Origin: a virus
Virus record (IMG/VR): IMGVR_UViG_3300045988_120604
Reading direction: 5' to 3' (one strand)
Length of the DNA stretch: 64,000 bases
Shown: positions 15,320-37,664 of the stretch, one piece after another
Layout of the letters: the number at the start of each line of letters is the position of its first letter
How positions within the stretch are numbered: the first letter of the stretch is position 1
Notes under the pieces: generated by a model
Seen by the model: the letters and a program-made list of their open reading frames with translations, nothing else
Told to the model about the DNA's origin: nothing
Database searches by the model: none
Program-made: the position numbers and the translations under genes

Positions 15320-18300
15320 ATGGAAAATAAGGAACAGACATTGGTAGAGAAATCAGGTTTCTTATCATCTACTGGATTAAGAGGGTATAATGCCGGAGTT
15401 CCTACGCGATATGAAGAAGAATCTTCTCTTATTGAGGGAGCAAAAAGAGAGATGGAGAGGATGAAAGTAGGTTCATATACTCCCCCGGTATCAGCCATAA
15501 ATCCTGATGATGATTCAGAAAAAGGGTCTGATATTAGCGGAATAGATACTTCTTTTGATGTAGACACATCTTTTTCTGGACTAAAATCGGCTCTGAATGG
15601 TGGAGATGATCCAAGAAAGAAGAAAGAGGAGTCTTATAATAAGTTAAATTCCATGATAAAATCTATTCAAGATAAATCAAGGAATACTTATTCTGGTAAA
15701 CGAACGTCTTATGGTGAGGTTATAGCTGGTGATCAACAGTCATCTGCTGTTGATTTTGGTGTATTTGGTAAAGGAAGAACTATTAAGTTAGATGAAGCAT
15801 ATGACTTTTTATCCGATGGGAACATCGGTCTTGCAAAGTTTAAAAGTTATATGCCAGGAAGGGATAATGAAGATTATTACGGAAGAAGGCAAACTACTTG
15901 GGATAAGGCTGTTAATGGTATGGGGAAATTTGTCACAAAAACAGCATTATATGGTGTATCAGGAGTAGTAGGTATTATCCCGGCTGCGTATAATCTTATA
16001 AAGACTGGTACGTTATCTTCTGCATTTGACAATGATTTTATACGGACCATAAATGATATAGATGAAAGAATAAACCACTCTCTTCCTCATTATTATACAA
16101 GAGAAGAGCGTGATATGGGATTTTTGCAGAGTCTTGGAACTGCAAATTTTATTTTTAATGATGTTATTGGAAATGGTCTATCGTTTATGGCAGGAGCTCT
16201 TCTGTCTGTCTACTTTACAGGTGGGTTGGGCGTGTCAAGTCTTGGAGCTATTGGCGCTAAAGTAGGGATGAGAGTGGCCGGGAAGATGGCGGCGTCTAAG
16301 ATTGCGGCAAGTGCTGTAAAATCAGCTTTTGGAGCGTATAGAGCAGGAGCGATGTACGGCAGGGCTATAGGTAATATGGCCAAGGTAGGAGTAAATACGT
16401 TCGTGGGCGCCGGCTGGGAGTCTGCCGTGGAGGCTCAGTCCTTCATGAAAGACTCTGAAAGTAAATACAAGGAATATTTTAAAAATATGTATGGTCGGAA
16501 TCCTAATCAGTCTGAGACGGCTGAATTTAAGAGTTCTATTTCCGATACGGCAAATAGCATATTTTTAGCTAATATGGGTATAGTTGGATTATCCAATTAT
16601 CTTCTTCTGGGAAAATATCTTGGAGTAGACACTGGTTTTGCTTCTAAATACATACCTGGATTAAAGGGTGTATCAAACACATATAGGGAATCAAAGAGTT
16701 TTGTAGATCGCTATTTGTTTGGATTAGGGACTAAGAAGGTAGCGGGTGATGCTGGAAGATTACAGACGATAAAAGCAAATTTATTCCAGAAATCCTTAGC
16801 TACTGTTTGGAATGTATCTAAAAGACCCATATCTGAAGGTGTATGGGAGGAAGGCATGCAAGGTGTTGCTCAGCGCATGGGGGAAGATTTTATTAGATCA
16901 AGATATGATAAGACGTATCTTGATGCTACGTCTTCTATAGTTGATTCTTTTTCTAAGGCCATAGCTGAACAATTTACAACCAAAGAAGGATTGAAAGAGA
17001 TTGGCATAGGAGCCCTGATTGGTGGTTTATTTGGAGCCAGAAATGGTGCTTTTGGTTTATATGAAAGGAGAAATAAAGAGCGTACTATTAATACTGATGT
17101 TGAGGAATTTAATAGTAATAATGCTTTTACTTCTCAATCTGTAAAAGACTCTATGCGAAATTTAGCCGAATTTAATGCTCAAATGAATGATCCTGAATCA
17201 GATTATTATTCTAAATTTGAATTATCTGACAGAATGGGAATGTTAGAGGATACGGCTAACAATTTCAGGTCAATGGTTAAAAGCCTTGACGAAAGTGAGT
17301 TGGCTTCTGAAATGAAAGTAGATGAAGAAACTGTTAAAAAATACAAGGAAGATATTATAAAAGATTTTGATAAGAAGTTAGCCAATTATAAAAAAGCTTC
17401 TTCTTTTGCTGAGGTTATTACTGCTGAGACTTCATCTGATCTTTATCGATCTAATGTTGCTAATGCTGTGTTTAAGGGGTTGGATGCAGAGGATATGGCA
17501 ATGGAAGTATCAAATGATATTGCTGATTATGTAAATGACAATAATTTGTTTGATGATATAAATACGTTTTATTCATTATCAAGTCAAGCTTTTGATACAG
17601 CTAATCAGTTAAGGGAATTGCGTAATGAGATCAATGATCTGAATGCTGAAATAGAAAGGTTGGCTACAACTCCAAGAAGAGTAGAGGATGGCAATGATAT
17701 CGAAGCAGAGGCTATAAAACAAAAAACTATTAAATACGATAATCTTAATAAGGAATATAGAAGGTTGTCAGAAGATCTTCTTAGTAGTTATAAAGAAGTA
17801 TTTTATTCTTTTGATCCTGGAGTATTAGCTTTTGAGTTGTTTAAATCCGAAACAATAACTGCTGAAGATATATTGAAAGCTTATGACTCTGTAGCTTCTT
17901 TAAGTACTTATATTGAGAATAATAAAGGGAAGAAAGAAGCAGAGGATTTAAGAAATATGGTGGTGAAATACCAGCAAGCCATTACCCAATATAAGGTTTT
18001 ACGGTCATTTATGAACTCCATACAGGATAAGAAATTCATGAGACATGATTTTTCTTTATTTTCTAAGTTCTTAAATGATATGGTATCTTCTAATACTAAA
18101 TCTATAGAAAGTGATCGTTTTTACCAGACAGAGGATAATAATATCAGTTTGGATGAAAAAATAGATGAGCTTCTGAATAATGGAGAAATAAATTCAGATG
18201 AAGCATTTACCATGAAAGTATTTGGTCATCTAAACGATGGTATAACTCAGAAGCCGAAAGAAGATATATTGTCTGATTTTGATTATGAGTCGGCAATGGA

Positions 18301-21300
18301 AGATCTTTTGTCTGCACCTATAGAGGTTAAAGAACGTATCGTAGATAAGATATATACAGGTAATCAAGATCTTTTATCTCCAAGGGAGAAGGAGATATAT
18401 GAAAAGTATAAACAGGATATTGATGATTATATATCAAATCTTGGTGATAGTCCGGCTAAGATGATAAAAGATTTATCAGATAAAGTTAAGAGACTTACTG
18501 AACCTCGATCTGTGTATGAGGATAATAATATCATTATTGATATGGCTAAATCAAATTTGGAACCAGATCAAAGGCAGGAACTTGATGATGCTATTTCTTC
18601 GTATGTGGATATAATGAACAGACGGGACAAAGGGGAGAAAGTTGATGAAGATAAGCTTGCTGATTCGGTATTTACCATAGAAGATCTTGGCCAAGTTGGA
18701 AACATCACAGATCTCCTTCCTTATATCGAACAAAACAGGATTATTGATAAAGGTCGTATTTCCGAATCTACGTTAAGTAATTTTGGGGAGGATGATGCTA
18801 ATATAGATTCTCTTGTAAATGAGTTAGACGAATCCGATAATACGCCGGGAGCTAACATAGATAGTGCCCAGAATCCAGAGACGTTGATGGTTAGAAGAAT
18901 ATCCAACGATGGCAACGAAAGGTATGAAATTGCGGGTCTTAGAGCCGATAAATTTATATCTTCTATAAAATCATTGGTTCCTATTCAAATAAGCTCTGAA
19001 ACGAACGCTAATGGTACTAAAAGGTATTCTCTTAACATAGGTGGAGAAACGGCTACTATAATGGAATTACCTTATCATGCGAGATGGTCTATAGATAAAG
19101 AATCGGCTCGTGTTCTTAATCGCTACACAGACGTGTCTATTCAGGACGTGGGTAATTCATATTCTTTGGTTTATAAGCGTCTTGATTCAGATGAGTTGGT
19201 TCCGTACAGAACAGGTGTCGGATTCGGAGAGAATGAAGTAGATAAAATAGATCAGGAAGCATTATCTTCTTTGAAAAAAGGAGATAAGGTGAATCTCGAA
19301 ATAGATGTAAATGATACCTATAATCAGTCTCTTTTTACCGAATACAATAACGCTGTTCAGTCCGGCGATAGAAATAAAATAGAATCTGCTGAAAATAAGC
19401 TGGTATCCAATATGGTTATTAAGGTTATGAGTGGGAACAGATTCGTTTCTGTTGTAAAAGCTGATACAGGAGGCATAGATGGTATAAGTAAGATAAGAAG
19501 AACGGCTTTCAACAAGTGGAAGAAGGACGCCGGCCGGTCGGCTACCGTCGGCGTCGGCACGCATGTTGTTGCCCAGACCCTTCCCGGAAGACCGGTGTTT
19601 AACATGAAGGTGAACGGTCAAGGATATGGCCAGGTAGAAAATCTCCCTATTACCGAAAAAGGTGCTGAAAAAGTATCTGATGTCGGATATGTATTAAATG
19701 GCAAAGTCGTGCTTAAGAACGGATCTAAATACACAGGCTTCCCATTTGCTTATTCTATATTAAATGACAAGGGGAATAATTACAAAAATGTAAGAGTTCC
19801 GGTAGTTGTCATCAAAGGTAAAAACGGTCTTAATTATCTTTTCCCAGTTAGCCTACGTTCTGTAGAATCAGAGGAAGGGCAGAAATGGATGTCTTTTATA
19901 GATATGCTGCTTGAATCTGGTGATTCTGAATTGCTACAGATGGGTCAAGATGATATACAAGATCTTAATGCGTATCTAACCAAGTTAGACCTTGATCCGG
20001 CTTCGTATCAAGTATCGTATTTGAATCCTATTTCAGGGCTTAGAAAAGCTCGTGAGGCTATAGAGAAATTATCTACGGTTCCTGATGTTGTTAAGTGGGT
20101 AGAAGATGGAAGTAGGAGCGTGAAAGACATTGTGACGTCTGAAGTAGAATCTGGAATAGATTTCGAAGGTGAGATGTTTGTTGCTCCTAAGATCAGGATC
20201 CAGTTTGGTAAATCATCTTCCAGGCCTAAATCACTTATAGAGGATGATCTTCCTTTCTCTGATGAGGGTAAGACCGTTACTTCTAAAGAAGATGTGGATG
20301 TTTATGAAGAGGAAATGCCAGAGGAAGGAGCTGTCCGGGGGACTCAGCCGGCGCCACCGGCTCAACCAGCTCCTGCGGCACAAGCTGCGCAGTCTTTACC
20401 TGGCAAGAAGCGTACCTCCAGGAAAAACTTCTCTCTTATGTTAAACGAAATAGAATCTCATATAGAAAAAGAGGGATTGCCGCCTTATGCTAATATTTTT
20501 GATTTTATAGCAAGGAAGATTGTAGGAGGTGACTTGAGGTTTCTTCGTGAGAGAGGTAATCCTAAAAGCCTTAAGGAGGAAATGGGATTAGAACCTAAAG
20601 GAACAGTAGGTGATAAGATATCCACTCCTTCCAGTAAAGGTGGTAAGACTTTAGAAGAATACGTTTCTTGGCTTCGTTCTCAAACAGATCAGGTGGTGGT
20701 GGATTATGTTGGGCCAAGATCTGATGAACAAATTATATCAGAGTTGGAAAACTTTTTGAAATATATTAATTTTGTTCCGAGTAAGGCTTTGAATTATTCT
20801 CTTAGAGTCAATGGCATGGATACCCTAAAAGAATATGGCACAAAAGAGGAAGTAGAAAAAATGGAATCTGATATCAATAGTTTGGTTTCTAAAGTTTTGC
20901 CTACGGTGGATAACCAAACTATAGAAGATGTTTCTACTGCAATAGAATCAAACAACTTGCCTGCCATATGGGAGCCCGTGGAAAGCCTTGATATGACAAA
21001 CGAGGGAAAAATAGAGTTTTTGAATAACGTAGCAGATTTCCTTAGCGGCATACCAGAGTATGATGCTGTTGTGGAGTCTATAGAGTCAGAATCAGATAAT
21101 ATTTTAAATGATGGAAAAGAAGGAAGTGCAGAAGGCGGTGCAGTACGCGCTGAGGAAGATGGCGATAAAAAGGGAGATGGAGAAGGCAAAGGACAATCCA
21201 GAACAAATGTCGAAGTTAAAGGAAATGTCGAATTACCTGGATATACAAAAGGAGAAATAGAAAAAGACGAACCTCGTATATCCGAAGAACCGCTTACTCA

Positions 21301-21727
21301 CATATCAAGGGTAACAACCCCTTATTTTCTGTACGGCGGTGATGAAGCATATACATCTGTTCCGGCTAAGGTAGAACAGATACCTGAGAAGATAATGGGT
21401 CGTAATGGCATTAAATTTGGTATGAGTGTAGTCGAGTTAACCAAATTAGGGTACAAAAAAGCTGGTGGAAACTGGATATATAAATTCTATATGAACTCAG
21501 GTGTGTATGATTTGTATAATATCAGTACCGGTGAAGCGTTTAGGGCAAAACCGGATCTTGGAGTTAAGATAAGTTCCAGTGCATTCATCCGCTCTTTATC
21601 TCAATCTGGTAGAAAAATACAAAATATGATGAGTAATATGAGCCAGGAAGAGATAGATAGGAATAAGAATCTCGTAGAAGGGTCTGATAATTCGGATTCG
21701 ATAAATGAGTTAAATAAGGAGTGTTGA
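15320..21727 (+). CDS. Giant virion protein (2135 aa); candidate ejected/cargo protein
   Basis: N-terminal region has Gly/Ala-rich hydrophobic segments (ALYGVSGVVGIIPAAY, GGLGVSSLGAIGAKVGMRVAGKMAASKIAASAV, IGIGALIGGLFGA). Long coiled-coil middle; Pro/Ala linker (QPAPPAQPAPAAQAAQ). No DxDGD motif found. Confidence 0.7.
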   Translation: MENKEQTLVEKSGFLSSTGLRGYNAGVPTRYEEESSLIEGAKREMERMKVGSYTPPVSAINPDDDSEKGSDISGIDTSFDVDTSFSGLKSALNGGDDPRKKKEESYNKLNSMIKSIQDKSRNTYSGKRTSYGEVIAGDQQSSAVDFGVFGKGRTIKLDEAYDFLSDGNIGLAKFKSYMPGRDNEDYYGRRQTTWDKAVNGMGKFVTKTALYGVSGVVGIIPAAYNLIKTGTLSSAFDNDFIRTINDIDERINHSLPHYYTREERDMGFLQSLGTANFIFNDVIGNGLSFMAGALLSVYFTGGLGVSSLGAIGAKVGMRVAGKMAASKIAASAVKSAFGAYRAGAMYGRAIGNMAKVGVNTFVGAGWESAVEAQSFMKDSESKYKEYFKNMYGRNPNQSETAEFKSSISDTANSIFLANMGIVGLSNYLLLGKYLGVDTGFASKYIPGLKGVSNTYRESKSFVDRYLFGLGTKKVAGDAGRLQTIKANLFQKSLATVWNVSKRPISEGVWEEGMQGVAQRMGEDFIRSRYDKTYLDATSSIVDSFSKAIAEQFTTKEGLKEIGIGALIGGLFGARNGAFGLYERRNKERTINTDVEEFNSNNAFTSQSVKDSMRNLAEFNAQMNDPESDYYSKFELSDRMGMLEDTANNFRSMVKSLDESELASEMKVDEETVKKYKEDIIKDFDKKLANYKKASSFAEVITAETSSDLYRSNVANAVFKGLDAEDMAMEVSNDIADYVNDNNLFDDINTFYSLSSQAFDTANQLRELRNEINDLNAEIERLATTPRRVEDGNDIEAEAIKQKTIKYDNLNKEYRRLSEDLLSSYKEVFYSFDPGVLAFELFKSETITAEDILKAYDSVASLSTYIENNKGKKEAEDLRNMVVKYQQAITQYKVLRSFMNSIQDKKFMRHDFSLFSKFLNDMVSSNTKSIESDRFYQTEDNNISLDEKIDELLNNGEINSDEAFTMKVFGHLNDGITQKPKEDILSDFDYESAMEDLLSAPIEVKERIVDKIYTGNQDLLSPREKEIYEKYKQDIDDYISNLGDSPAKMIKDLSDKVKRLTEPRSVYEDNNIIIDMAKSNLEPDQRQELDDAISSYVDIMNRRDKGEKVDEDKLADSVFTIEDLGQVGNITDLLPYIEQNRIIDKGRISESTLSNFGEDDANIDSLVNELDESDNTPGANIDSAQNPETLMVRRISNDGNERYEIAGLRADKFISSIKSLVPIQISSETNANGTKRYSLNIGGETATIMELPYHARWSIDKESARVLNRYTDVSIQDVGNSYSLVYKRLDSDELVPYRTGVGFGENEVDKIDQEALSSLKKGDKVNLEIDVNDTYNQSLFTEYNNAVQSGDRNKIESAENKLVSNMVIKVMSGNRFVSVVKADTGGIDGISKIRRTAFNKWKKDAGRSATVGVGTHVVAQTLPGRPVFNMKVNGQGYGQVENLPITEKGAEKVSDVGYVLNGKVVLKNGSKYTGFPFAYSILNDKGNNYKNVRVPVVVIKGKNGLNYLFPVSLRSVESEEGQKWMSFIDMLLESGDSELLQMGQDDIQDLNAYLTKLDLDPASYQVSYLNPISGLRKAREAIEKLSTVPDVVKWVEDGSRSVKDIVTSEVESGIDFEGEMFVAPKIRIQFGKSSSRPKSLIEDDLPFSDEGKTVTSKEDVDVYEEEMPEEGAVRGTQPAPPAQPAPAAQAAQSLPGKKRTSRKNFSLMLNEIESHIEKEGLPPYANIFDFIARKIVGGDLRFLRERGNPKSLKEEMGLEPKGTVGDKISTPSSKGGKTLEEYVSWLRSQTDQVVVDYVGPRSDEQIISELENFLKYINFVPSKALNYSLRVNGMDTLKEYGTKEEVEKMESDINSLVSKVLPTVDNQTIEDVSTAIESNNLPAIWEPVESLDMTNEGKIEFLNNVADFLSGIPEYDAVVESIESESDNILNDGKEGSAEGGAVRAEEDGDKKGDGEGKGQSRTNVEVKGNVELPGYTKGEIEKDEPRISEEPLTHISRVTTPYFLYGGDEAYTSVPAKVEQIPEKIMGRNGIKFGMSVVELTKLGYKKAGGNWIYKFYMNSGVYDLYNISTGEAFRAKPDLGVKISSSAFIRSLSQSGRKIQNMMSNMSQEEIDRNKNLVEGSDNSDSINELNKEC

Positions 21728-21729
21728 GT

Positions 21730-22260
21730 ATGAGAAGGAGATTTTTTAATGCTGCGGATAATTTCGTGGGAGGATGTTATAATAAGTTATCCAATGAAGA
21801 TATAAAAAGGCTTGGAGGAAAAAGACCTTATGTATGTCAGTTTAATAAAATTCATATACATATAGGACCTGTATTAAAAGATCATGATTCTGATGTTAGT
21901 TACATAATGTTTAATAGTAATTGGAATTATGGTGGTTATGAATCTATGGTTTATAATCATAGCAATAATGGTATTTTTATATTAGGTGAAAACAAAATTG
22001 GTAACATAGAAGATCATATACAAGATCTAACATATTGGTACGAATATGATCCAAGCATTAATGAAAATTATTGTTATTTTTATTATGAGGCTAATAACAG
22101 CGGAAATGCTATCAAGTTGAATGGTGAGTTTGGTGATACCAGTACTGTTTTCAACATTCCCAGCTTGGAAGTCACCACTCTTCGTGATGGCAGTTTGAGT
22201 TTTCCGGAGATTTATATAGAAGGAATTTGGGATCCGTCATTGTATAAGTCGGTTTTATAA
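21730..22260 (+). CDS. Hypothetical protein (177 aa)
   Basis: ATG 21730 sits 3 nt after the upstream stop, with taaggag 9 nt upstream. Confidence 0.5.
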   Translation: MRRRFFNAADNFVGGCYNKLSNEDIKRLGGKRPYVCQFNKIHIHIGPVLKDHDSDVSYIMFNSNWNYGGYESMVYNHSNNGIFILGENKIGNIEDHIQDLTYWYEYDPSINENYCYFYYEANNSGNAIKLNGEFGDTSTVFNIPSLEVTTLRDGSLSFPEIYIEGIWDPSLYKSVL

Positions 22261-22286: not shown

Positions 22287-24545
22287 ATGGGTGTCAAATG
22301 TCAGATAGAAAAAAAGGAAAATGAAATAAAACGGGTTAAGGCTCCTAACGGGGAGCCTTCCGTTCTTTACGAAAGTGCTTTAAAAGTATTAGGAAACAGC
22401 GAGCGGGCCCTTCAGGTATGGGCTAAGGCTTACACTCCTGGTTTTTTGTCGTATTATGGTCATTGGAATAACCCGGCTCCAGGGGAGATGTTTAATACCG
22501 ATCCCAATGGCGAACCTCTTTTAGAAGACGTGCTGTCGTATATGAAGCGTCAGACTTATTTTGCTGATCCTTTAACGGCTCAGGACATTAAGGATGTAAG
22601 GGATTTCCTTTTGTCTACTCATTATTTTTTTAATGCGTCTTCATTGTCTAATGCTATTCTCTTCGATTTTTATGTAGATGGCAGTTTGATACTGAATGAG
22701 CAGAAATTAAGGAGATCCGGTTTGTATGATGAAACAGAGATAAGTCGTATTTTATCCGATCCTTCTGTTTTAAATGAGGTTTCGACTTCCATGAGAAAGT
22801 TAATAGATTATTCTATTAACGAACATGATAGGGAAAAGGATAATTATTTTATGTCTGTTGACTATCAGTATGGTCCTATTGTTTACAAGGAGGGAGTGTT
22901 TAACCAATTTGGTAAAAAAGTACCATATAATCCTTCTGAGCTTTATTGGGCTATGGGCAAAACAGTAGCCGGCATAAAAAACTTTTCTGAATTTTCATCT
23001 GCTTTTGAATCGTTGAGAAACTCATACCCTGAACTGGTTGAGAAATTCGTTTCTGATAAAGAATTTGCCGAATCTATGTTTGATGAGTTCTCATCTACGA
23101 ATAAGATTCCGGTAATAAACATAGAAGGGGATGATGTGGTAGAAGGCAAGAGAAGATCCTTGTCTAAGCTACAAGATCTGTCTTATTACAATCCTGGCAA
23201 AATAGAGTTCCTAAGAGCTCGTATATCAGCTTATTTACATAGGGCTAATGCCGACACCGAATCCGACTTAAGAAGCATGATATGGGATATAGAAGAGGCT
23301 TGTACGTGGTTTGGCATAGATATAATAGGGACATCGGAAACTTATGATGGCACAGAAGAATCTTTGAATAAGATAGATAATTTGATGCTGGATCTTGATA
23401 TTTATGTGGCCAGGCATAATGATGTAAATTATGCTCCAACGCTGGCATCTTCTATAGATGATATTCTTGGTGATAGCACAGATTATTATTTTGGATTATT
23501 ACCGGAGTATATGGATAATTTGAATATCGTTTATTCTGAATCCGATATAGACCCAGTAGAGGCATTTGAGAAACATTCATTGCTTAAGGTAGGAGATAAT
23601 CTATATCAAAGGATCAGCAAAGATGATCTTAACGAGATGTATCAAATATCAACAGTATTAGCCAAGCACAACCTAACTCATTTTTCTACTAAAATATATC
23701 CTGAATCTTGTTTTAAGAACGGCGTTTTGGATAAAGAGAAAGTACGGAACGTAGATAATAATACGCTCATGGATTCCATTAAAAAATACGTCAGATCGTT
23801 CATGGATTCTCAAAACACAGAGGACATGATAATGACCAGGATGGCGTTTGGGCACCCGGCGGTACTTGACATTTCTTACGCGGATATGGATCGGGAGTAT
23901 AGTCGATACATGAACAAAAAACAAGATAGCGAAAACCCATTATCCTTATTCGATTTATACCAATCTTACCTTGACAACAAACTCCATAAAACAAAATTAT
24001 ATGATAATGCCTATAAGTATCTTGACTTCAAACCTGGTTCATCTTTGGGCCTTATTTCTGATGATCCTGATATTCTGAAATCAATAGAATTATCTTTATC
24101 TGGAAAAGACAGGTTGATGTTGTTTGATTATAGCATGACCAGCACCGATCCTTCTTTATCAAAATTGTTTTATTTGGATAGGTATGACCCTTCGTATGCC
24201 GATAATGATTTTGAACATTATTTTTACACCAGGCACCCGTATCTGTTAAAAGAAAAATCGGGTCCTAATATCGTAGAGCAAGATGGTGTTATAACAGCCG
24301 AAGGTATTTATGATAATTTTATAAGAGTAGGTAATAAGATATGGTCTAAAGTAAGCGAAAGTAGTTCCGGCTCTATCTACCAAAATCTGACAGGAACCGA
24401 ATCGGAGGTGAAATACGATTCTACTCAGAAGGTTAAGACGGTAGAAACCGATTACGCTCCATACCAAAACAGATCTGGCCTGACGCAAGATATGATCGTA
24501 AGCAAGTCTGAATTGGATGATCTTAACAAATTAGAATGCAGGTAA
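22287..24545 (+). CDS. Large hypothetical virion protein (752 aa)
   Basis: Long ORF with no recognisable motif. Confidence 0.6.
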   Translation: MGVKCQIEKKENEIKRVKAPNGEPSVLYESALKVLGNSERALQVWAKAYTPGFLSYYGHWNNPAPGEMFNTDPNGEPLLEDVLSYMKRQTYFADPLTAQDIKDVRDFLLSTHYFFNASSLSNAILFDFYVDGSLILNEQKLRRSGLYDETEISRILSDPSVLNEVSTSMRKLIDYSINEHDREKDNYFMSVDYQYGPIVYKEGVFNQFGKKVPYNPSELYWAMGKTVAGIKNFSEFSSAFESLRNSYPELVEKFVSDKEFAESMFDEFSSTNKIPVINIEGDDVVEGKRRSLSKLQDLSYYNPGKIEFLRARISAYLHRANADTESDLRSMIWDIEEACTWFGIDIIGTSETYDGTEESLNKIDNLMLDLDIYVARHNDVNYAPTLASSIDDILGDSTDYYFGLLPEYMDNLNIVYSESDIDPVEAFEKHSLLKVGDNLYQRISKDDLNEMYQISTVLAKHNLTHFSTKIYPESCFKNGVLDKEKVRNVDNNTLMDSIKKYVRSFMDSQNTEDMIMTRMAFGHPAVLDISYADMDREYSRYMNKKQDSENPLSLFDLYQSYLDNKLHKTKLYDNAYKYLDFKPGSSLGLISDDPDILKSIELSLSGKDRLMLFDYSMTSTDPSLSKLFYLDRYDPSYADNDFEHYFYTRHPYLLKEKSGPNIVEQDGVITAEGIYDNFIRVGNKIWSKVSESSSGSIYQNLTGTESEVKYDSTQKVKTVETDYAPYQNRSGLTQDMIVSKSELDDLNKLECR

Positions 24546-24587
24546 TTTTTGTACATATATATAGTTTTTTCATAGTTATAATTTGGG

Positions 24588-24965: not shown

Positions 24966-24969
24966 AAAG

Positions 24970-27426: not shown

Positions 27427-27455
27427 GTTTATTTACAGGTAGTGTTTTAAAAGAA

Positions 27456-29108: not shown

Positions 29109-29320
29109 CTGTAGAAGAATTGGCTAATAAAAGATACAGTGGCGAATTTGTTTTCATGCTTGGTCATTTGGAAGGTATAACAAGATTCGTTTTTGAATGT
29201 TTTGATCCCAGGCCTGATCACGAAGGTAAAAATACTTATATGGTTTCCTATTTTGATAAGGGACTTCGTAGAAGAGATGTGGTAGATGTGCCATGTTATA
29301 TGAATGTTTTAGCAAAATAA
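29105..29320 (+). CDS. Hypothetical small protein (71 aa)
   Basis: ATGA start/stop overlap with the upstream ORF. Confidence 0.4.
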   Translation: MTVEELANKRYSGEFVFMLGHLEGITRFVFECFDPRPDHEGKNTYMVSYFDKGLRRRDVVDVPCYMNVLAK

Positions 29321-29378
29321 ATTAAAATATTGTAAATATCGTGGTTAGAATCGCATATTTCGGAAGGTATTTGACGTC

Positions 29379-29876: not shown

Positions 29877-29921
29877 TAACAATTAATTTAAAACAAATCA
29901 ATTAAAAGATTTTAAAGATGT

Positions 29922-30083
29922 GGTTAGAGTAATGACAAAAGAAGAGTTCGAATCAACAATCGAAGAAGATATTAAATTCGTTGAGGGATTCAAGAATTTC
30001 TTAAAACATGATGATGCCACGAGGATAGTAGAGCATATCAAGTCTGTGTTAGAAGCATCAGTAGATTACTGCGCAGAATATAT
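29922..30083 (+). CDS. Small hypothetical ORF (~53 aa; MTKEEFESTIEEDIKFVEG...)
   Basis: Below the ORF-track threshold but fills an inter-ORF gap. Confidence 0.25.
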
Positions 30084-30330
30084 ACTCCGATAATTATAGG
30101 CTTAAGGTTTATACTGGTAATTGCATAATTCAATTGAACGTAAATCCAAAGGACCCCAGTGAATCCTTTTTTGACGTATATGATAGAGATGAGATGAAAT
30201 TGATATACGGAATAAAGATCAGTATTCTGAAAGAAATGTTTATCATATGATTACCAAGCAGGACATACAAGCAGCAGCATCGTATATTTTCCGAAGCAGT
30301 TTTGTCTCGTAGGACCAGGCAAGGAAAGCA

Positions 30331-30564
30331 ATGGTAAGAGTCGGCAATAACGCTACCAAGATCCTCGTCAAGACCTTTAGAGGCAAGTTGTTCAAGAAAG
30401 CTTTTGAAAGAGCCCGTAGAGGAAAGGATATCAGTTCTTTTGAAAGACAGGAAAAAGAAAGTGGTTTCAATTTTCTACACAATCCTAATAATGGTCGTAT
30501 GCAAAGCGGTCATATTATAATAGATGGAATTGGTCTGTTTAAACAAATAATTCATGAAAGGTAA
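30331..30564 (+). CDS. Hypothetical basic small protein (77 aa)
   Basis: ORF; the antisense ORF 30243..30482 is probably a shadow. Confidence 0.35.
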   Translation: MVRVGNNATKILVKTFRGKLFKKAFERARRGKDISSFERQEKESGFNFLHNPNNGRMQSGHIIIDGIGLFKQIIHER

Positions 30565-30724
30565 AAAAGTTGATATTCGTTTAGGTAGAGGTCTGGCGAA
30601 TCAGATTAAGATAAACAAAACCATTCCAGTGTCTCATAAACCAAAAGAAGAACGTCGAATGATGTTTATTTGTGGTGATGATATTGCTTCTATTATAAAG
30701 CGGTTTGAAAACGAATCAAAGTAA
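30554..30724 (+). CDS. Small hypothetical ORF (56 aa; MKGKKVDIRLGRG...) overlapping the upstream stop
   Basis: Start overlaps the end of the previous ORF. Confidence 0.25.
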   Translation: MKGKKVDIRLGRGLANQIKINKTIPVSHKPKEERRMMFICGDDIASIIKRFENESK

Positions 30725-30775
30725 TATAAAGTCGGACATATATCTTGTCCGATTTTTTTTTTATATATTTGTGGC

Positions 30776-31099
30776 ATGGCAAGAGGTTATTATTGGATAC
30801 CACAAACAGATGAAACGTTAAATGGCAGAAGCTATTACGTGGCTAAGATAGTAGGAGATATCACGTTTGATACTAAACGAAAAAGAATCGTATTTCAAGC
30901 TGATAGGTATTTCCCTGTAGGATCTGTTTTCCATTTTACGCACAATTGCTTCAATTATATCATAACTTGCCTAATTCGTAAGCCGGGGCTTTGGTTTGAA
31001 GCCAGGAGAGAGGATTCGGGCTCTATTTGCCCTGAAGATATTGAGCGCTTTGAATCGGGAAGGTTTATACACCGAGATGGGTACATGCATTACATGTAA
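30776..31099 (+). CDS. Hypothetical protein (107 aa)
   Basis: ORF followed by two terminator-like hairpins. Confidence 0.45.
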   Translation: MARGYYWIPQTDETLNGRSYYVAKIVGDITFDTKRKRIVFQADRYFPVGSVFHFTHNCFNYIITCLIRKPGLWFEARREDSGSICPEDIERFESGRFIHRDGYMHYM

Positions 31100-31241: not shown

Positions 31242-34200
31242 ATGACATCAACGTGTATTATTAAAAGAGATAATAAAAAGAAAGTTGTTTCTGTCTCTAC
31301 CAGATCAGGGGACAGGTCTATGTTGTTTGATAAAATAGCATCTGTTCCCCTTATGGAGAATAGGGAACGGGCTACTACTGTTTTTAAAACCGTATTTTCT
31401 AATAAGTTCTTAAAGGCTTTTGGCGACTGGAGAAAGAGAGTGCCTATCAACAAACAGGCTTATAATAAGGTAAAATCCAACATCGATCTTATCCCAGAAG
31501 CCTATATAGAAAGGGTGCTGGATAAGGCTTCTAAGATGAGTAACCCTGTTCTTGTGTCAAAATCAGATGCACCTTATGGGATTCAAGAATCGGGCTTTGG
31601 ATTCTACAGCCAAGATCTGGGTGATAATATTATGTTGGTGGATGCTATGGTTCCGTCAAGTATTTCCGTACCGGAAGGACCGGGAATAGACGCCGGGCAG
31701 TATCTACAAGATGCTATATCTTCGGACTTCACTCCCGTATCTATGGTACAGGATAAGGGTGTTAATTATATGGTTATAAAAGACGGTCTTAAGATATTTA
31801 GCCCAGAGGAGTTACCAGAAACAGATTCTAATCCTGTGGGTGTAACGTATCAGACCGGAGAGCCTCGTTTGTTTTTCATGAACGATCGTAATCAATTATT
31901 TGAAGATTACGGAGAAGCTCTTCGCTCTGGCGGGAATGATATTAGAATAGGATTCTTATCCGGCACCGTTCAAGAATCTACCGTGGATGGCGTGGCAGAC
32001 ATTACTTACAAGGCTGGAAAGTATGTTCTTAATAATCCCAAGTCTTTTATACCGGTCATGACCGCTTCTGCTTCTACTTCTTTATCAACGAAAGGCGGGA
32101 TAATTAACTACCTTATAAAGAAAGGTCTTTTGTCAGGATCTAAGATATTCGATCCTGAAACAAGAAGCTATTATCTTACAGGAGAAGGTCATACAGGACA
32201 AATTAGACTTTTCAATTCAGCCTTATCCTACACCGAGCTCCGTAATCATTTTGGTTCAGATGTTTCCATGAACGACCAGGGTATGATAACCATAAGCTCG
32301 TTGGATAATAGTAAGGTAACTATGAGACTCGCTACCGGAGGGACGGAAAGGGTTAGTAGGGAACAGATAAAGAACGATCTCAAGTCAGGAAGATACAATG
32401 AATTGGATGCTAAGTACGATCATTTTGATGCGCTTGTAGTTTCATTCATATTAGAAGACAACGATCTTTATGCTGATGCTAAAGCTAAGATCGTATCAGA
32501 TTATAGCAGGCAGGAACGTGACCAACGAAATTCTATTGTCGAGATACTGAAAACGCTGGGCGTTAGTGTCATAGGTATGACCGACTATATAGAGAAGTAC
32601 CAAACCAAATACGGGCATGAACCTTCTGCTAAGGCATTGGCGGATATTGCCAATAACGTAATAGCAGTTGGTGAAGATGCTACTTTATCTGATTTAGTAG
32701 AAGAAACAGCCCACTTCCTTGTAGAGGCATACAGAGATCAGAATGCTGTTGAGGCTGTTCTGCAAGATGTAGAAGGTACGGAAGAGTGGAACCAATATGC
32801 AGGTCAGTATTATAATACATACGGTAAGGTATATGAAGGAGCTGAGCTTGATAATGCTGTTAGGAGAGAAATTCTTGGAAAGATCCTCGCCAGGGAGATG
32901 CAGACCGGCACAGCACAGGCGCCGGTAGAGCCCACCTCCTTCCTGGGGCGCGTCCGGCAGCTTCTCTCTGGAATCGTAAGCTGGCTTAAATCAGCTTTAT
33001 CAACCCAAAGACAAGATTTGAATAACGTTATTAAAAACATTCGTGATCTTGCCATTACTGACATAGATAAAGGATTTGACACCTCTCTGTTAAAGGATAA
33101 TGACTTTACATTATATTCCCTTTCTTCTATGAACAAGAACAAGTTTCTTGAGTCTAAAATCCGGGCATTAAGGAAAACATTAAGAGACTTACGTCAGATA
33201 AGCTCTGATAGGGCTGTAACTACGTCTATGACCCTTGCGCAGCTTAAGACCATAGAAGATAAGATAAATAAAGTAGAGACCGAAATAGACAAGAATGAGA
33301 TGGCGGCTGCCATGAACAGCATGATCTCCACAGCCGAAGCTCAGGTCAGATACTTAAGTAATGTGGTGAACATCATCCTTCATGGTGATACCAAAGACGG
33401 TAAGCTTCACTTCAATACCAATGATCGAAAGAACGTAGATATTATCAACAATCAGGTTCTTCCGATCATGAACGATCTTCGAGGATATATCCGTAACAGA
33501 AGTACCGAATTTGATGAACGTGAAAAGCAGGATTATACAAATAGGATCAATACCGTCATTGCCGACATCAATGGTATTCAGTCTGATATTAAATCAGTAC
33601 AAGACCTTGATGAAAGTACGTTGCTTGATAAGTTAATGAACGAACTTCATGTGCCGGCAGATAAGGTAAAGAGAGTAAAAGAATTTTTCGACAAGGTTCA
33701 ACACGATGTTTCTTGGATAAGTAGGTGGTTTGGTATATTAGAGCATTCTTCCAGTCCGTTCAATAACGCTCTTGGAGCTATGATTGCCAAAGACAATTAC
33801 AATGCGATGGTGAATGCCCAGCCCGCCATATCCGACTTCCTGGCATATGCGAAAAAGCATGGTTTTAACAAATCTGAATTTGAAAAACTGCTTCAGAAAG
33901 TAGACAGCAAAACTTCTAATTACCTTCGTAGTGCTCTTGATATGGCTAAATACGATCGTAATAAGAAGCTGGCGCAGATGCGAGCGTTTGCGACTGCCAT
34001 GAACATAGAGATATCAGAAGAAGAAATTGGTGATGTGGTTGACAATAACCGTAATTACGTATTTAAAAGAGAAGTAGTTGACAAGGATGGAAATACGGTT
34101 ACTGAAAACGCTAAATTCAAACCATCGTCTGATAGAGTTAATACCGATATTTTTACCATCGAGCAGGAAAAGATCTATACAGAGCAGATGGAAAAGTGGG

Positions 34201-37200
34201 ATGCTGAAAATTCGGAACTGGAATTTAGCGAAAGTTATGCCACAAGAATGGAATCCATATACAAAAAGGCTGAAGAAGAATTAGGGCATCCGGTTTCTCA
34301 AACAACCAAAGAATACCTTAATGCTCTATCCCGGCAAAAACGGATATTGAGGCAGCCTTTTATTGATAGCGGTGGTAATTTTGATGAAGTTGCCTATTTT
34401 AAAAGCAGCAATTACGAAGAAGAAGGACTGCTTCGTAAACAACGTAAGGAAGCAGCTTCAGAATACATATATGTAGGAACCAGGAGAGTGGAAAAAACCG
34501 GCGACCAACTTAAGATGGCCAAAGAAATACAAGCTATAAATGAAGTTTGGAGAAAGGAATCAAATAATGTTACTAATGCCGTATCAGAATCGTTTTTGCA
34601 AAAATTGAGAGCGATTCAGAGCGAGTCAGGAGGGGAAGCTGCATTGAGAACGCTTATGTTGGGTGGTCACCTGTCATTCAACGATCGGTTTTGGAATGAT
34701 ATAGAATCGGAACAGTCAGCGCGTACCGAATCAAATAACAAGGCTTCGTATCTCAAAATGGCGCATGATATCATTAGTTCTACGACAAGTGATAGAGATG
34801 CGACTGACGTGGATTCTATTGTGAAAGATATAGAAAAAAATAAGGCCATTATCAAGGAAATAATCGGAAACAATCGCGATGTGGCTGATATCGGAGAGAT
34901 TAACGAAGCGACATTTACCTCATCTGAAAGAGATGCTTTTAGGGCCGCATCTGAAGCTATTGAAGCCGATTACGCTATTTTGATAGATTATGTTAAGATG
35001 GTGGGTCTTGAAGATATTGATAAGTACCTTACTAAAAGCAGTAAGGCTGAAAACGAAGTAAATCAGTCTTATTTAAATGCTCTTGCTGACTCCAAGGAAG
35101 TGGAATGGAAGTTCGTACAACGTCATACTACGGCGAAGAAAGCAAGAAGGATTCAGGCTTTAAGGGATAAGCTGTTTAAGGCTGCTGATAACCGATATTT
35201 GTTTACCGTATCTGAAACCAACTACCTGTCAGAAAAGCTTGGTATAAGCAAAGAATTAGACGGTAGAGATTTTAGGAATGCTGTTAATGCTAAGATGGCC
35301 AGCTTATTTTTAAATAATACAAGGGAAGAGGGCATAGAAGAGGCCAATGCTATTGTTAATGAATTTGCCAGGAGCCAGGTTTTTTCGTACTATAAACGCA
35401 TGGCTCCTACCGGATATGCGGCTATGATCGACAAAATCGGTCGAGGTGAGATAGATGTGGCGCAGATGGTTAAGGACGTACAAAACGGTACATCCACCCA
35501 AGATTATGGCATGGACATATCGTACCTGTCTTTCGATCCTGCAAGGGCATGGGTGGCTGAATCTGAAGCCGAAAATAGCGGCCGTAATCCTGATTATGTA
35601 AAAGATCATGGGTATGGTCATCGCATGCCTAAGAAAAGCCTGTATCGTGACGAATCGTATTTCAATGACTTTGGTATCAAGTATGATGCTGACGGTAATG
35701 AAGTTGCTACTAAAAACGTAGAGCAGTGGAATATGATTCAAAAACTCAAGGAAATAAAAAGACAATCCCTTGATCTATACAAAGAGCAGAGCCCGAACCT
35801 GTATGCTATTCCACAGATATCAAAACAAGACATAGAACGTATGGAAGGATTGGGTATTAACTTCAAAAATACGGTTCGTAATTTTGTATCAGATCTGTGC
35901 CTGGACAGAGTAGACGATTCTCTATACGGTAAAACCAGGCAAGGAGAAGTATATGATCCGGAAGATAGACTTAGGTCTATACCTAAATACTACATATATG
36001 AATTGGAGAACCAAGATGATGTATCTCACGATTTTGGCTACTCTTATTCGATGCTTATGATGCAGTCATCGTTATACAACGAAAAGCAGAAGTCTATAGA
36101 GCTCGCTCAAGGACTGGAGCAGATGTTGCTGAATAAGCAATTTGAAGGCGGGAAGAAAGCTGAAGCGACTCAAGCATATCAGATGTTTAGGGACTTCTTC
36201 AACGATCATTATTATGGCATTAGGATGAACACCAAAAAACTTACGGTGAACATCGGAGGATATACGGTAGACCTTACAAGAATTATGATGGCTGTTGAAA
36301 GATTTATGTCGGTCATGAACTTGGCACTGTCTCCGTTTGTGGCAGCTACCGGCGCCTTAACAGGTCATATCAACCTCATCATGGAATCTGCCGTAGGACA
36401 GTATATAAGCAAAGACTCCCTTAAATACGCATCGGCTGAATTTTCACGCCTTGCTCCGTCTTGTATAGCAGAAACCGGAGACATAGATAGGAAAAGCAAA
36501 TTATATGTCATAGGTGAGAGAATGGGGATATTCAATATCCGAAATCGTATGTATGGTGCCGGATACAATAGAGCGGCCAGGACCTTAATGCGTTCGCCTA
36601 TGTATGCTTTTATGGAAATCCTGAACTACCCTCTTGATCCGCAGGTTATGATTGCTACTATGGACAATGTTCGTTATTACAAAGGCCGGTTCTACACGTT
36701 CCAAGATTTCAAGATGGAAAAAGAACGTAATAAAGAACAGAGTACCATAAAAAGAGAATGGAATGCATTAAAAGATCGTACTTTATGGAGTATGGTAGAC
36801 GTCGTGGATGGGAAGGTGGTTGTAAAGCCAGGATCGGGTGTTACTGTTGAGGAAGTAGAAACCCAGATGGCTATAACCAGGAATCAAGTCCGTAGCTTGT
36901 CGCAGATATGTAACGGATCTTTGAATGAAGAAAACCGAACTGCCGCATCGCGCAACTGGATAGCCAGGTTCATGACCGCCCACCGAGGGTGGTTGGTGCT
37001 GGCGGCTCAACGTCTGTGGAAAAGACGTGGCTTCAATTTCCAGACAATGCAAGAAGAGGAAGGGTTGTCAATTACGTTAAAGAATATGATAGCCAAAACA
37101 TTTAGCCTGGCTTCCGAGTCTGGTATGAAAAACATCATAGATGCCTGGAACGAAAATAAAGACAATATGGATGAGGTAGAGAAAACTAATCTCAAACGCC

Positions 37201-37664
37201 TCAGTGTCTATGCCGGCACGTTCCTTATCATGCAAGCCGTATCCATGCTTCTTGCCGGATGGCGTGATGATGATGAAAACGAAGAAAGTTGGCTTACTCA
37301 ATTTGGATCTTACGTTGGATTCAGAACCATAAACGAAATAGCTTCACAGATGCCGTTTATTATGGAGCTTAACGTGGTAGATATCATTAACGATCCGTTT
37401 GTTATGGGGCGGAAACTGAAGGATCTTACCGATCTTAGGAATTATTCACTTGATGAAGTAACATCCGGCACATACAAAGGAGAGTCTAAGTTATTTAGGC
37501 AACTCGCCAAACAGACGTTTATCAAACAATGGTATAATATCAAGACGCCGGAAGACGTAGCGCGCGCCTATAATTGGTGGCAGCAGACAAACAACAAGTC
37601 AATGATGTTCTTCATCGGCGCTACTCCTGATTCGGAAGGAGACGATGACGTTAGTTACAAATAG
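31242..37664 (+). CDS. Giant virion protein (2140 aa); candidate cargo protein. A virion-RNAP-like role is possible but unproven.
   Basis: Last gene of the plus-strand block, the position occupied by giant cargo/RNAP proteins in crAss-like phages. It contains YDADGNE, which only partially matches the DxDGD catalytic motif. Confidence 0.7.
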   Translation: MTSTCIIKRDNKKKVVSVSTRSGDRSMLFDKIASVPLMENRERATTVFKTVFSNKFLKAFGDWRKRVPINKQAYNKVKSNIDLIPEAYIERVLDKASKMSNPVLVSKSDAPYGIQESGFGFYSQDLGDNIMLVDAMVPSSISVPEGPGIDAGQYLQDAISSDFTPVSMVQDKGVNYMVIKDGLKIFSPEELPETDSNPVGVTYQTGEPRLFFMNDRNQLFEDYGEALRSGGNDIRIGFLSGTVQESTVDGVADITYKAGKYVLNNPKSFIPVMTASASTSLSTKGGIINYLIKKGLLSGSKIFDPETRSYYLTGEGHTGQIRLFNSALSYTELRNHFGSDVSMNDQGMITISSLDNSKVTMRLATGGTERVSREQIKNDLKSGRYNELDAKYDHFDALVVSFILEDNDLYADAKAKIVSDYSRQERDQRNSIVEILKTLGVSVIGMTDYIEKYQTKYGHEPSAKALADIANNVIAVGEDATLSDLVEETAHFLVEAYRDQNAVEAVLQDVEGTEEWNQYAGQYYNTYGKVYEGAELDNAVRREILGKILAREMQTGTAQAPVEPTSFLGRVRQLLSGIVSWLKSALSTQRQDLNNVIKNIRDLAITDIDKGFDTSLLKDNDFTLYSLSSMNKNKFLESKIRALRKTLRDLRQISSDRAVTTSMTLAQLKTIEDKINKVETEIDKNEMAAAMNSMISTAEAQVRYLSNVVNIILHGDTKDGKLHFNTNDRKNVDIINNQVLPIMNDLRGYIRNRSTEFDEREKQDYTNRINTVIADINGIQSDIKSVQDLDESTLLDKLMNELHVPADKVKRVKEFFDKVQHDVSWISRWFGILEHSSSPFNNALGAMIAKDNYNAMVNAQPAISDFLAYAKKHGFNKSEFEKLLQKVDSKTSNYLRSALDMAKYDRNKKLAQMRAFATAMNIEISEEEIGDVVDNNRNYVFKREVVDKDGNTVTENAKFKPSSDRVNTDIFTIEQEKIYTEQMEKWDAENSELEFSESYATRMESIYKKAEEELGHPVSQTTKEYLNALSRQKRILRQPFIDSGGNFDEVAYFKSSNYEEEGLLRKQRKEAASEYIYVGTRRVEKTGDQLKMAKEIQAINEVWRKESNNVTNAVSESFLQKLRAIQSESGGEAALRTLMLGGHLSFNDRFWNDIESEQSARTESNNKASYLKMAHDIISSTTSDRDATDVDSIVKDIEKNKAIIKEIIGNNRDVADIGEINEATFTSSERDAFRAASEAIEADYAILIDYVKMVGLEDIDKYLTKSSKAENEVNQSYLNALADSKEVEWKFVQRHTTAKKARRIQALRDKLFKAADNRYLFTVSETNYLSEKLGISKELDGRDFRNAVNAKMASLFLNNTREEGIEEANAIVNEFARSQVFSYYKRMAPTGYAAMIDKIGRGEIDVAQMVKDVQNGTSTQDYGMDISYLSFDPARAWVAESEAENSGRNPDYVKDHGYGHRMPKKSLYRDESYFNDFGIKYDADGNEVATKNVEQWNMIQKLKEIKRQSLDLYKEQSPNLYAIPQISKQDIERMEGLGINFKNTVRNFVSDLCLDRVDDSLYGKTRQGEVYDPEDRLRSIPKYYIYELENQDDVSHDFGYSYSMLMMQSSLYNEKQKSIELAQGLEQMLLNKQFEGGKKAEATQAYQMFRDFFNDHYYGIRMNTKKLTVNIGGYTVDLTRIMMAVERFMSVMNLALSPFVAATGALTGHINLIMESAVGQYISKDSLKYASAEFSRLAPSCIAETGDIDRKSKLYVIGERMGIFNIRNRMYGAGYNRAARTLMRSPMYAFMEILNYPLDPQVMIATMDNVRYYKGRFYTFQDFKMEKERNKEQSTIKREWNALKDRTLWSMVDVVDGKVVVKPGSGVTVEEVETQMAITRNQVRSLSQICNGSLNEENRTAASRNWIARFMTAHRGWLVLAAQRLWKRRGFNFQTMQEEEGLSITLKNMIAKTFSLASESGMKNIIDAWNENKDNMDEVEKTNLKRLSVYAGTFLIMQAVSMLLAGWRDDDENEESWLTQFGSYVGFRTINEIASQMPFIMELNVVDIINDPFVMGRKLKDLTDLRNYSLDEVTSGTYKGESKLFRQLAKQTFIKQWYNIKTPEDVARAYNWWQQTNNKSMMFFIGATPDSEGDDDVSYK

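Follow-up and report, generated by a model that had tools for sequence, protein, structure and literature searches.

Two giant proteins of a putative epsilon-group crAss-like phage match crassvirus cargo families and flank a non-polymerase protein

The viral DNA analysed here (the window; 64,000 nucleotides of IMG/VR record IMGVR_UViG_3300045988_120604) contains two open reading frames (ORFs) that each encode more than 2100 residues, ORF-A and ORF-B. We conclude, with a probability of about 0.85, that they belong to a set of three giant cargo proteins located inside the virion, of which ORF-A is the first and ORF-B the last. This figure applies to the cargo-protein identity alone; packaging, ejection, membrane insertion and a disulfide chain are features that we infer beyond it. 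An earlier note, made from the sequence, had proposed both ORFs as candidate ejected cargo or virion-RNA-polymerase-like proteins. Both frames are found exactly as it gave them, and the first of its two proposals is supported by reciprocal profile matches to crAss001 gp47/phi14:2 gp67 and crAss001 gp49/phi14:2 gp65, which have been found in virions. The second was not borne out, as described below. The three genes of the set are as follows.

15320..21727, + strand: ORF-A, 2135 residues, ATG start, a giant cargo protein of the gp47 (crAss001)/gp67 (phi14:2) type
22287..24545, + strand: the 'middle' protein, 752 residues, in the slot that holds the RNA polymerase (RNAP) in phi14:2, by synteny
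31242..37664, + strand: ORF-B, 2140 residues, ATG start, a giant cargo protein of the gp49 (crAss001)/gp65 (phi14:2) type

The window region is 95% identical, across 68% of its length, to the 151-kb human-gut phage csAssE-Sib (OR575929.1), a name for which a literature search returned no papers. Every large gene of the block has a homologue in the Cellulophaga phages phi17:2 and phi4:1 (145 kb), where the gene order is the same, and the block is syntenic with phi17:2 gp043 to gp036. As phage phi17:2 has been placed in the "Epsilon" group of crAss-like phages (Yutin 2021; PMC7886860), the window phage would, judging from its sequence, also be an epsilon-group crAss-like phage.

The assignment of ORF-B is carried by profile comparisons in both directions. 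ORF-B matches the PHROGs family phrog_37651, 'virion structural protein', over nearly its full length (E = 1e-74), and a database search recovered 105 homologues of 1,880–2,776 residues, the fully assembled ones lying on contigs of about 150 kb. A hidden Markov model (HMM) built from an alignment of 27 diverse homologues (A1) matched crAss001 gp49 (1e-71), cr52_1 gp35 (2e-96) and phi14:2 gp65 ("RNA polymerase associated protein"; 1e-25) but neither of the catalytic RNAPs, gp50 and gp66; the E-values of local searches given here and below refer to small databases (tens to about 1000 sequences). In the reverse direction, a profile of six gp49-like proteins searched against all six-frame ORFs found ORF-B at 3e-46. 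The tblastn matches fall in genes on either side of that for the RNAP in cr128_1, IAS virus, cr85_1 and crAss001, those of ORF-B being in the gene adjoining the RNAP gene in the first three of these. The reciprocal matches and the gene position therefore identify ORF-B as the counterpart of gp49 and gp65, about 800 residues longer. It matches these proteins along its length except in inserted helical parts, shares with them a conserved hydrophobic helix about 140 residues from the C-terminus and a Cys at residue 3–5, and is likewise the last gene of the cargo block; unlike them, it has no adjoining RNAP gene. Its terminal position in the block, as previously noted, is confirmed: it is the last + strand gene, the cumulative GC (guanine–cytosine) skew peaks at about 36–38 kb and the genes past about 38.7 kb lie on the − strand. 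Three parts form the conserved core of the protein.

31242..31541, + strand: N-terminal module, residues 1–100, M-x2-3-C-x-I-K-R ... S-x-LF ... FGDW
32529..32921, + strand: zincin-like region, residues 430–560, with EETAH at residues 487–491 (32700..32714)
35439..37661, + strand: C-terminal domain, residues 1400–2140, a conserved all-α domain common to crassvirus gp49-like proteins

Residues C5, V18, S26 and L28 of the N-terminal module are invariant in A1, and the start of the protein resembles the N-termini of gp49, gp65 and the gp66 RNAP (alignment, phmmer). The gp65 orthologues carry a zincin-like metalloprotease domain (Drobysheva et al., 10.1101/2020.03.07.982082), and the motif of the zincin-like region of ORF-B falls in the same alignment column: EETAH aligns with EEFAH of gp49 and HEIMH of phi14:2 gp65, with E487, E488, H491 and F492 invariant in the 27 diverse homologues. 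The ORF-B motif is thus of the form EExxH, as in gp49 and unlike the HExxH of gp65, the first His of the HExxH zinc-binding motif being replaced by Glu across the epsilon-group family as well as in gp49. Pfam gave no match for ORF-B, and for phi14:2 gp65 only a sub-threshold SprT-like match (E = 0.016). The suggestion that undetected enzymatic domains might be present holds in so far as ORF-B has this zincin-like motif region, but the motif is in a variant form. The C-terminal domain contains hydrophobic helices at residues 1688–1706 and 1987–2005. In the csAssE-Sib record (103085..109487; L001 28737..35139) the ORF-B homologue is annotated as two overlapping coding sequences of 846 and 5,658 nt; tblastn against csAssE-Sib covers 100% of ORF-B in two pieces, which points to a frameshift, a sequencing error or faulty annotation there. 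In another contig (L010, 699..3556), genes for a reverse transcriptase (RVT_1) and an HNH/RRXRR protein immediately precede the ORF-B homologue.

The family also has a variable zone, at residues ~60–200 of ORF-B, where some homologues carry added N-terminal domains: Methyltransf_23 (P0027), a methyltransferase fold of the NAS-like type (P0098) and LPD23, 'large polyvalent protein associated domain 23' (P0020). The polyvalent proteins of phages and conjugative elements, reportedly described by Iyer et al. in 2017, are giant injected proteins that bear a series of LPD or effector domains. The extra methyltransferase and LPD23 domains, located where ORF-B varies, and the range of the middle protein from 372 to 1349 residues through insertions could point to ORF-B-type proteins being mainly injected 'polyvalent' effector carriers, which deliver counter-defence enzymes and are not primarily parts of a channel or ejectosome. 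We consider this unlikely. No effector domain is detectable by Pfam in the ORF-B of the window, and the conserved core (N-terminal module, zincin-like region and C-terminal helical domain) is kept with or without inserts. The proposal is also compatible with the identification of ORF-B as cargo, since a cargo protein can carry effector modules.

ORF-A is related to the other flanking cargo protein through its N-terminal half. Residues 156–619 match phrog_32390 (E = 6e-67 in PHROGs; function unknown), a profile whose length of 1957 equals that of phi17:2 gp039, and an HMM of five gp47/gp67-type proteins matched residues 183–957 (E = 4e-17) and nothing else in the window. With tblastn, residues 157–1660 matched the "structural protein" of phi17:2 and phi4:1 (phi17:2 gp039), and the hydrophobic stretch at residues 188–309 matched the N-termini of crAss001 gp47, IAS gp058, cr128 gp051 and cr85 gp056. 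As in gp47 and gp67, with which the N-terminal hydrophobic Gly-rich domain is homologous, ORF-A has a lone C-terminal Cys and precedes the middle protein. The homologue search also returned at least 120 near-identical sequences (97–100%). Three regions can be distinguished.

15785..17179, + strand: conserved N-terminal domain, residues ~156–620, where conservation in the family is highest (A3 consensus)
17177..18769, + strand: coiled-coil or helical spacer, residues ~620–1150
19037..20299, + strand: conserved α/β domain, residues 1240–1660

The Gly/Ala-rich hydrophobic segments that had been pointed out near the N-terminus were recovered by a hydropathy scan as three segments (residues 209–227, 282–311 and 413–431), which are also present, at conserved positions, in gp47 and gp67. 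The N-terminal domain has no Pfam match; its sequence suggests that the hydrophobic helices probably insert into the host envelope. The remainder of the protein had been described as about 1500 residues of coiled-coil or unknown sequence. The coiled coil stands: in searches of the PDB the ORF-A family profile found only coiled-coil chains (myosin, GCN4, spectrin and similar) at profile positions ~650–1050, and the Gly plus Pro content of residues ~620–1150 is low. The description does not hold for the part that follows, which contains a widely conserved domain. A search with residues 1001–2135 against 1.84 billion representative proteins gave 75 matches, in which the widely conserved portion corresponds to residues ~1240–1650 and the α/β domain occupies the same relative position in proteins of 1,500–2,500 residues; the last ~480 residues are common to close relatives only. 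The α/β domain, for which the AlphaFold model is confident, has no solved structural relative, and neither it nor the C-terminal tail has a significant match in gp47 or gp67. Searched by sequence against the PDB, neither ORF-A and ORF-B nor the first ORF of the window gave a match, PDB profile searches with the A1 and A3 families gave only designed helical or coiled-coil proteins, and Pfam searches with ORF-A and ORF-B gave only sub-threshold noise.

The cargo character of the two families comes from the virions of other crassviruses. Mass spectrometry detected gp47, gp49 and gp50 in crAss001 virions, where they were called cargo (PMC10172136), and gp65, gp66 and gp67 of phi14:2 are all found in virions and are fused into one polyprotein in some phages (10.1101/2020.03.07.982082). 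The phi17:2 homologues, including gp036, carry the annotation virion structural protein, which was assigned from their similarity to phi4:1. By extension from the homologues detected in virions, ORF-A and ORF-B would be packaged and ejected. Their great length, their partly coiled-coil nature, their place inside the tail-gene block and the PHROG family labels 'virion structural protein' or 'unknown' might also suit structural proteins that are not ejected, either external ones or ones that set a length (tail fibre, tape measure or tail needle). This appears to be very unlikely. The crAss-like phages are short-tailed, so that a tape measure is not expected. Neither ORF matches a tail-fibre or tape-measure profile in PHROGs or Pfam, matches which the earlier note had named as evidence that would speak against its proposal. 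The near-absence of Cys, described below, separates the block from the rest of the window, including the fragment of the muzzle protein, and the cryo-EM (electron cryo-microscopy) atlas of crAss001 places gp47 and gp49 in the internal cargo zone, with the tail and fibres formed by other proteins (PMC10172136).

The genes lie in the block that holds the virion RNA polymerase (vRNAP) in other crassviruses, and ORF-B contains a short sequence that had been put forward as an imperfect match to the metal-binding loop of two-barrel RNAPs.

35682..35702, + strand: YDADGNE, ORF-B residues 1481–1487, a non-conserved β-hairpin loop

The heptapeptide is present at these residues, but its role as a metal-binding loop could not be upheld. 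The corresponding block of alignment columns is variable and is deleted in many of the 27 A1 members, making it an indel-prone loop that is deleted or different in most of the family, and in the model it forms a hairpin between strands 80–82 and 88–90 of the modelled segment. From the alignment and the model, we consider that YDADGNE is not a catalytic site. Neither DxDxD nor DFDxD occurs in ORF-A or ORF-B, and the pattern [GSA][ST]?D[FY]DxD is absent from all frames of the window, the csAssE-Sib genome, the 15–60 kb region of phi17:2 and five related contigs. A profile of five crassvirus RNAPs, searched against the six frames of the same set of sequences, gave no credible match, with only ORFs of 66 and 80 residues below an E-value of 1 (0.13–0.18); as a positive control, this profile finds the RNAP part of crAss002 gp33 at 1e-42. 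In csAssE-Sib there is no ORF of more than about 950 residues outside the structural block.

Confident AlphaFold models were obtained for residues 1400–2140 of ORF-B and residues 1240–1660 of ORF-A. Neither model has a β-barrel, and PDB searches with them returned no RNAP: the modelled region of ORF-B that contains YDADGNE is all-α and the ORF-A region is a non-barrel α/β domain, so the double-psi β-barrels that the earlier note had suggested looking for were not found in these parts. The vRNAPs phi14:2 gp66 and crAss001 gp50 belong to the same gene block and have an N-terminal Cys module similar to that of ORF-B and the 752-residue protein, the latter sharing with them a Cys near each terminus; in contrast to the vRNAPs, ORF-A, ORF-B and the 752-residue protein lack the DFDxD motif and show no profile similarity to them, and the parts that were modelled contain no barrel. 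The structure of the two-barrel vRNAP is PDB entry 6VR4. Comparison of a profile of the ORF-A α/β domain with crassvirus RNAPs gave E-values of 0.02–0.14 in a database of 42 sequences, which we regard as noise because the hits lie ~200–300 residues upstream of the DFDxD loop and involve a helical part of the ORF-A domain.

One could still suppose that ORF-A or ORF-B is a cryptic, highly diverged two-barrel vRNAP with its barrels in the unmodelled parts. The models omit residues 1–1399 of ORF-B and residues 1–1239 and 1661–2135 of ORF-A, and for these other ~3,100 residues the negative result is one of sequence only. GenBank, moreover, labels the Steigviridae homologues 'putative RNA-polymerase subunit', and crassvirus RNAPs diverge very fast (PMC7886860). 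Such an enzyme would need to have lost both aspartate motifs, to retain nothing conserved at YDADGNE and to escape a profile that nevertheless finds the RNAP of crAss002. The only clearly β-rich region, residues 1240–1660 of ORF-A, is the one confidently modelled without a barrel. In addition, where the orthologues gp47 and gp49 occur, the catalytic protein is a different one, gp50, so that they are not the polymerase there either. We regard the supposition as extremely improbable. On the evidence of the sequences and predicted models, neither ORF-A nor ORF-B is an RNA polymerase, and the sequences of this lineage contain no detectable polymerase.

The slot between the two giants was examined in the same way. 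In the Cellulophaga phage phi14:2 the order is gp67, gp66 (the RNAP) and gp65, and the corresponding set in crAss001 is gp47, gp50 and gp49. No RNAP gene adjoins ORF-B in the window; the neighbours of ORF-B are a gene for 107 residues, an insertion and the gene for the 752-residue protein. The counterparts at the middle position are phi17:2 gp038 (517 residues, annotated as a virion structural protein) and proteins of 737, 815 and 1349 residues in related contigs, and the 752-residue protein, the middle proteins of loci L011, L013 and L014 and phi17:2 gp038 constitute one family (phmmer, 1e-76 to 1e-6). Over its first ~100 residues this family shares homology with the start of the ORF-B family (hhalign probability 96%, E = 1.4e-9), while hhalign gave no match of the N-terminus to the RNAP profile. 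The N-terminal ~90 residues of the 752-residue protein show weak pairwise similarity to those of phi14:2 gp66 and cr52 gp35, and the protein has no Pfam or PHROG match and no RNAP signature. The possibility that it is a reduced RNAP was rejected, as it has no DxDxD, the profile–profile comparison is negative and the similarity is limited to those first ~90 residues. The middle protein of L011 has an insertion of ~560 residues after the first ~60.

A further property shared by the three proteins is their cysteine content, which was counted over a block that also includes three upstream proteins. These make up the upstream portion of the cysteine-free block (4376..15316, + strand) and were compared with phi17:2 gp040–042 by tblastn and phmmer.

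4376..7399, + strand: 1007-residue protein with two lysozyme domains (Pfam Phage_lysozyme and Phage_lysozyme2)
9381..12293, + strand: 970-residue protein, homologue of the phi17:2 virion protein gp041
12293..15316, + strand: 1007-residue protein, homologue of the phi17:2 virion protein gp040

The block counted in this way (the lysozyme protein, the 970- and 1007-residue proteins, ORF-A, the 752-residue protein and ORF-B) contains nine Cys in 8,011 residues (0.11%), whereas the remaining window ORFs with 150 residues or more have 148 in 9,089 (1.63%). The three proteins of about 1000 residues have none, and at the background rate the probability of finding at most one Cys in 2,135 residues is 2e-14. 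By comparison, the muzzle protein fragment has eight Cys in 967 residues. Several of the few that remain in the set lie at the very ends of the chains, as they do in three related loci.

21722..21724, + strand: Cys2135, the sole Cys and last residue of ORF-A (...LNKEC)
22299..22301: Cys5 of the 752-residue protein (MGVKC...)
24537..24539: Cys751, the penultimate residue of the 752-residue protein (...LECR)
31254..31256: Cys5 of ORF-B (MTSTC...), invariant, with none near the C-terminus
L011: first protein, Cys 1673 of 1674; middle protein, Cys 5 and 1348 of 1349; last protein, Cys 3
L013: first protein, Cys 1745 of 1746; middle protein, Cys 3 and 814 of 815; last protein, Cys 3
L014: first protein, Cys 1668 of 1668; middle protein, Cys 5 and 737 of 737; last protein, Cys 4 and four more

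The three L011 proteins contain no other Cys in 4,977 residues. The pattern recurs in both families. In 50 representatives of distinct 50%-identity clusters of the ORF-A family, the median is one Cys per protein and exactly one is found in 38, located within the last ten residues in 36 of these; overall, a Cys is present in the last ten residues in 42 of the 50 and within about 30 residues of the end in six more, and the two representatives with no Cys are probably truncated. The ORF-B family has the reverse arrangement, with a Cys within the first eight residues in 102 of 105 members and in the last ten residues in none. All 18 single-Cys members have it within these first eight residues, and the three exceptions are N-terminally truncated gene calls. 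The same is true of distant relatives. In phi14:2, gp67 has one Cys (the last residue), gp66 has two (MAC... and ...QECK) and gp65 has one (MSC...). crAss001, cr85_1 and cr128_1 show the same pattern with the RNAP in the middle, these RNAPs holding three to four Cys in all. The single Cys of crAss002 gp32 (2020 residues) is residue 2019, and gp47, gp67 and phi17:2 gp039 likewise have a single C-terminal Cys. The terminal-Cys pattern thus spans epsilon-group phages to crAss001, phi14:2 and crAss002.

The virions of crAss001 hold many intermolecular disulfides. The cysteines of the cargo proteins are not mentioned in the Bayfield paper (PMC10172136) or the Drobysheva preprint (10.1101/2020.03.07.982082). 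The positions of the lone terminal Cys residues raise the possibility, to which we give somewhat less than an even chance, of disulfide bonds between them that would connect ORF-A to the middle protein and the middle protein to ORF-B in head-to-tail order. Extended to crAss-like phages in general, the C-terminal Cys of gp47/ORF-A would bond to the N-terminal Cys of the middle protein, and the C-terminal Cys of the latter to the N-terminal Cys of gp49/ORF-B, so that the three could be threaded out as one string and reduced in the cytoplasm; this broader scheme is more tentative still. Proteins that must unfold to pass through the tail would have been selected to lack Cys, and the retained terminal residues would achieve through disulfides what some crassviruses achieve by fusing the proteins into a polyprotein. 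A low Cys content may be a general signature of proteins that unfold through a phage tail.

These elements can be combined in a model of delivery. ORF-A, the middle protein and ORF-B would be housed in the capsid and, at infection, leave it through the tail, either before the DNA or along with it. The lysozyme protein has two different domains and no Cys (Phage_lysozyme at residues 37–163 and Phage_lysozyme2, 'phage tail lysozyme', at residues 738–888); it is likely to be the component of the ejected set that degrades the cell wall, and would act first. The N-terminal helices of ORF-A would then enter the membrane while its coiled coil spans the envelope, and the middle protein and ORF-B would follow, possibly tethered by disulfides, with cytoplasmic reduction finally separating the three. 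Early transcription would depend on the host polymerase.

The order of functions in this model resembles that in coliphage N4 gp50, a 3500-residue ejected vRNAP in which an N-terminal domain proposed to be part of an inner-membrane complex is followed in turn by the RNAP, a C1 domain with HExxH and a large helical C2 domain without structural relatives (PMC13434306). With no Cys in 3491 residues, N4 gp50 is also comparable to the Cys-poor block described here. The phages differ in that N4 uses one polypeptide with a T7-like RNAP, whereas the window encodes three separate proteins and no polymerase. Homology of ORF-B to the C-terminal domain of N4 gp50 was considered and rejected, as there is no detectable sequence or profile similarity; the resemblance is one of analogy and not of family membership. 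The ejection proteins of podoviruses (T7 gp14/gp15/gp16 and P22 gp7/gp16/gp20) are internal capsid proteins that are expelled before the DNA and span the envelope (PMC10172136). The block of the window likewise has a lysozyme-bearing member (4376..7399); in contrast to the T7 and P22 proteins, to which no sequence or fold similarity was found, ORF-A and ORF-B are several times larger.

Several points weigh against the cargo interpretation or against the disulfide chain. The similarity of ORF-A to gp47 and gp67 is confined to residues ~180–960, and no Steigviridae counterpart of its C-terminal half was detected. The confident AlphaFold models comprise 1162 of the 4275 residues of the two proteins, and the E-values of the local searches come from the small databases mentioned above. 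The virion location of this phage's proteins is argued from that of their homologues. The motif of the zincin-like region has lost its first His, making catalytic activity of this region doubtful. The Cys pattern also has departures: ORF-B has three further Cys (four in total) and the 752-residue protein two further (also four in total), the 372-residue protein at the middle position of L012 has none, and the first Cys of the fused RNAP–gp49 protein of crAss002 is at residue 35 and not at residue 3–5. The disulfide chain itself is proposed from sequence alone.

The other genes around the set are listed here.

1..3030: C-terminal part of the muzzle protein (phrog_37948; the csAssE-Sib homologue is annotated "Muzzle protein")
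between the muzzle fragment and the lysozyme protein: 249-residue protein with an amidase-like match
8248..9384: Cys-rich ORF of 378 residues (nine Cys), outside the counted cargo block
21721..22260, + strand: ORF of 179 residues with a GTG start and three Cys, overlapping the end of ORF-A by seven bases
24546..30775: accessory insertion of ~6.2 kb with Pfam and PHROG matches
25070..26260: IS605-type TnpB, in the insertion
26548..27426: Bro-N/ANT antirepressor, in the insertion
27502..28416, − strand: ORF of 304 residues, in the insertion together with several small ORFs
30776..31099, + strand: conserved gene for 107 residues, just upstream of ORF-B

The gene order in the window is therefore muzzle, 249-residue protein, lysozyme protein (1007 residues), 378-residue ORF, 970-residue protein, 1007-residue protein, ORF-A, 179-residue ORF, 752-residue protein, the ~6.2-kb accessory stretch, 107-residue gene and ORF-B. 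The muzzle gene is listed as an ORF at 127..3030; its frame is open from base 1, so the gene runs off the window. The 179-residue ORF has no family match and no counterpart at that position in the related loci L011–L014, and may be a lineage-specific addition or not a real gene. The stretch from 24.6 to 30.7 kb is identified as an insertion by comparison with related loci, in which nothing but the small gene separates the middle protein from the ORF-B homologue; no such insertion is present at this position in phi17:2, L011, L013 or L014. The 107-residue gene is a homologue of the small gene that occupies this site in L014 (E = 8e-15) and in L011 (E = 1e-5). The 125-kb cyanophage Lbo-JY46 of Leptolyngbya (PP438436.1) has tblastn matches at 62600..63982 and 77255..77797, to crAss001 gp49 (4e-27) and to the 1007-residue protein encoded at 12293..15316 of the window (1e-9). 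Parts of the cargo block therefore seem to be present outside the phages of Bacteroidota.

As members of known crassvirus cargo families, the genes for ORF-A and ORF-B are unremarkable, and GenBank already contains a genome with 95% identity. What is new is that the epsilon lineage keeps two of the three giants of the "transcription block", with a non-polymerase protein in the middle slot, and that the set carries a terminal-Cys signature from which a testable model of cargo ejection follows. The epsilon group was described as being without a "transcription gene block" (Yutin 2021; PMC7886860); contrary to this description, two of the three giant genes of the block are present and in order, with a different protein in the slot of the polymerase. 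That both giants are kept in a lineage in which no polymerase can be detected speaks for a role in delivery or as cargo and against their being polymerase subunits, and calls into question the GenBank label "putative RNA-polymerase subunit" given to their homologues. As a corollary of the proposed chain, which the epsilon group would keep with no detectable polymerase, the two so-called 'RNAP subunits' may work in delivery, independent of a polymerase. The scarcity of Cys over ~8,000 residues and the matching terminal Cys residues in very distant relatives form a simple sequence signature, which leads to a proposal for how megadalton amounts of protein might leave the phage head in an ordered way and which may help in recognizing ejected proteins in other phages.

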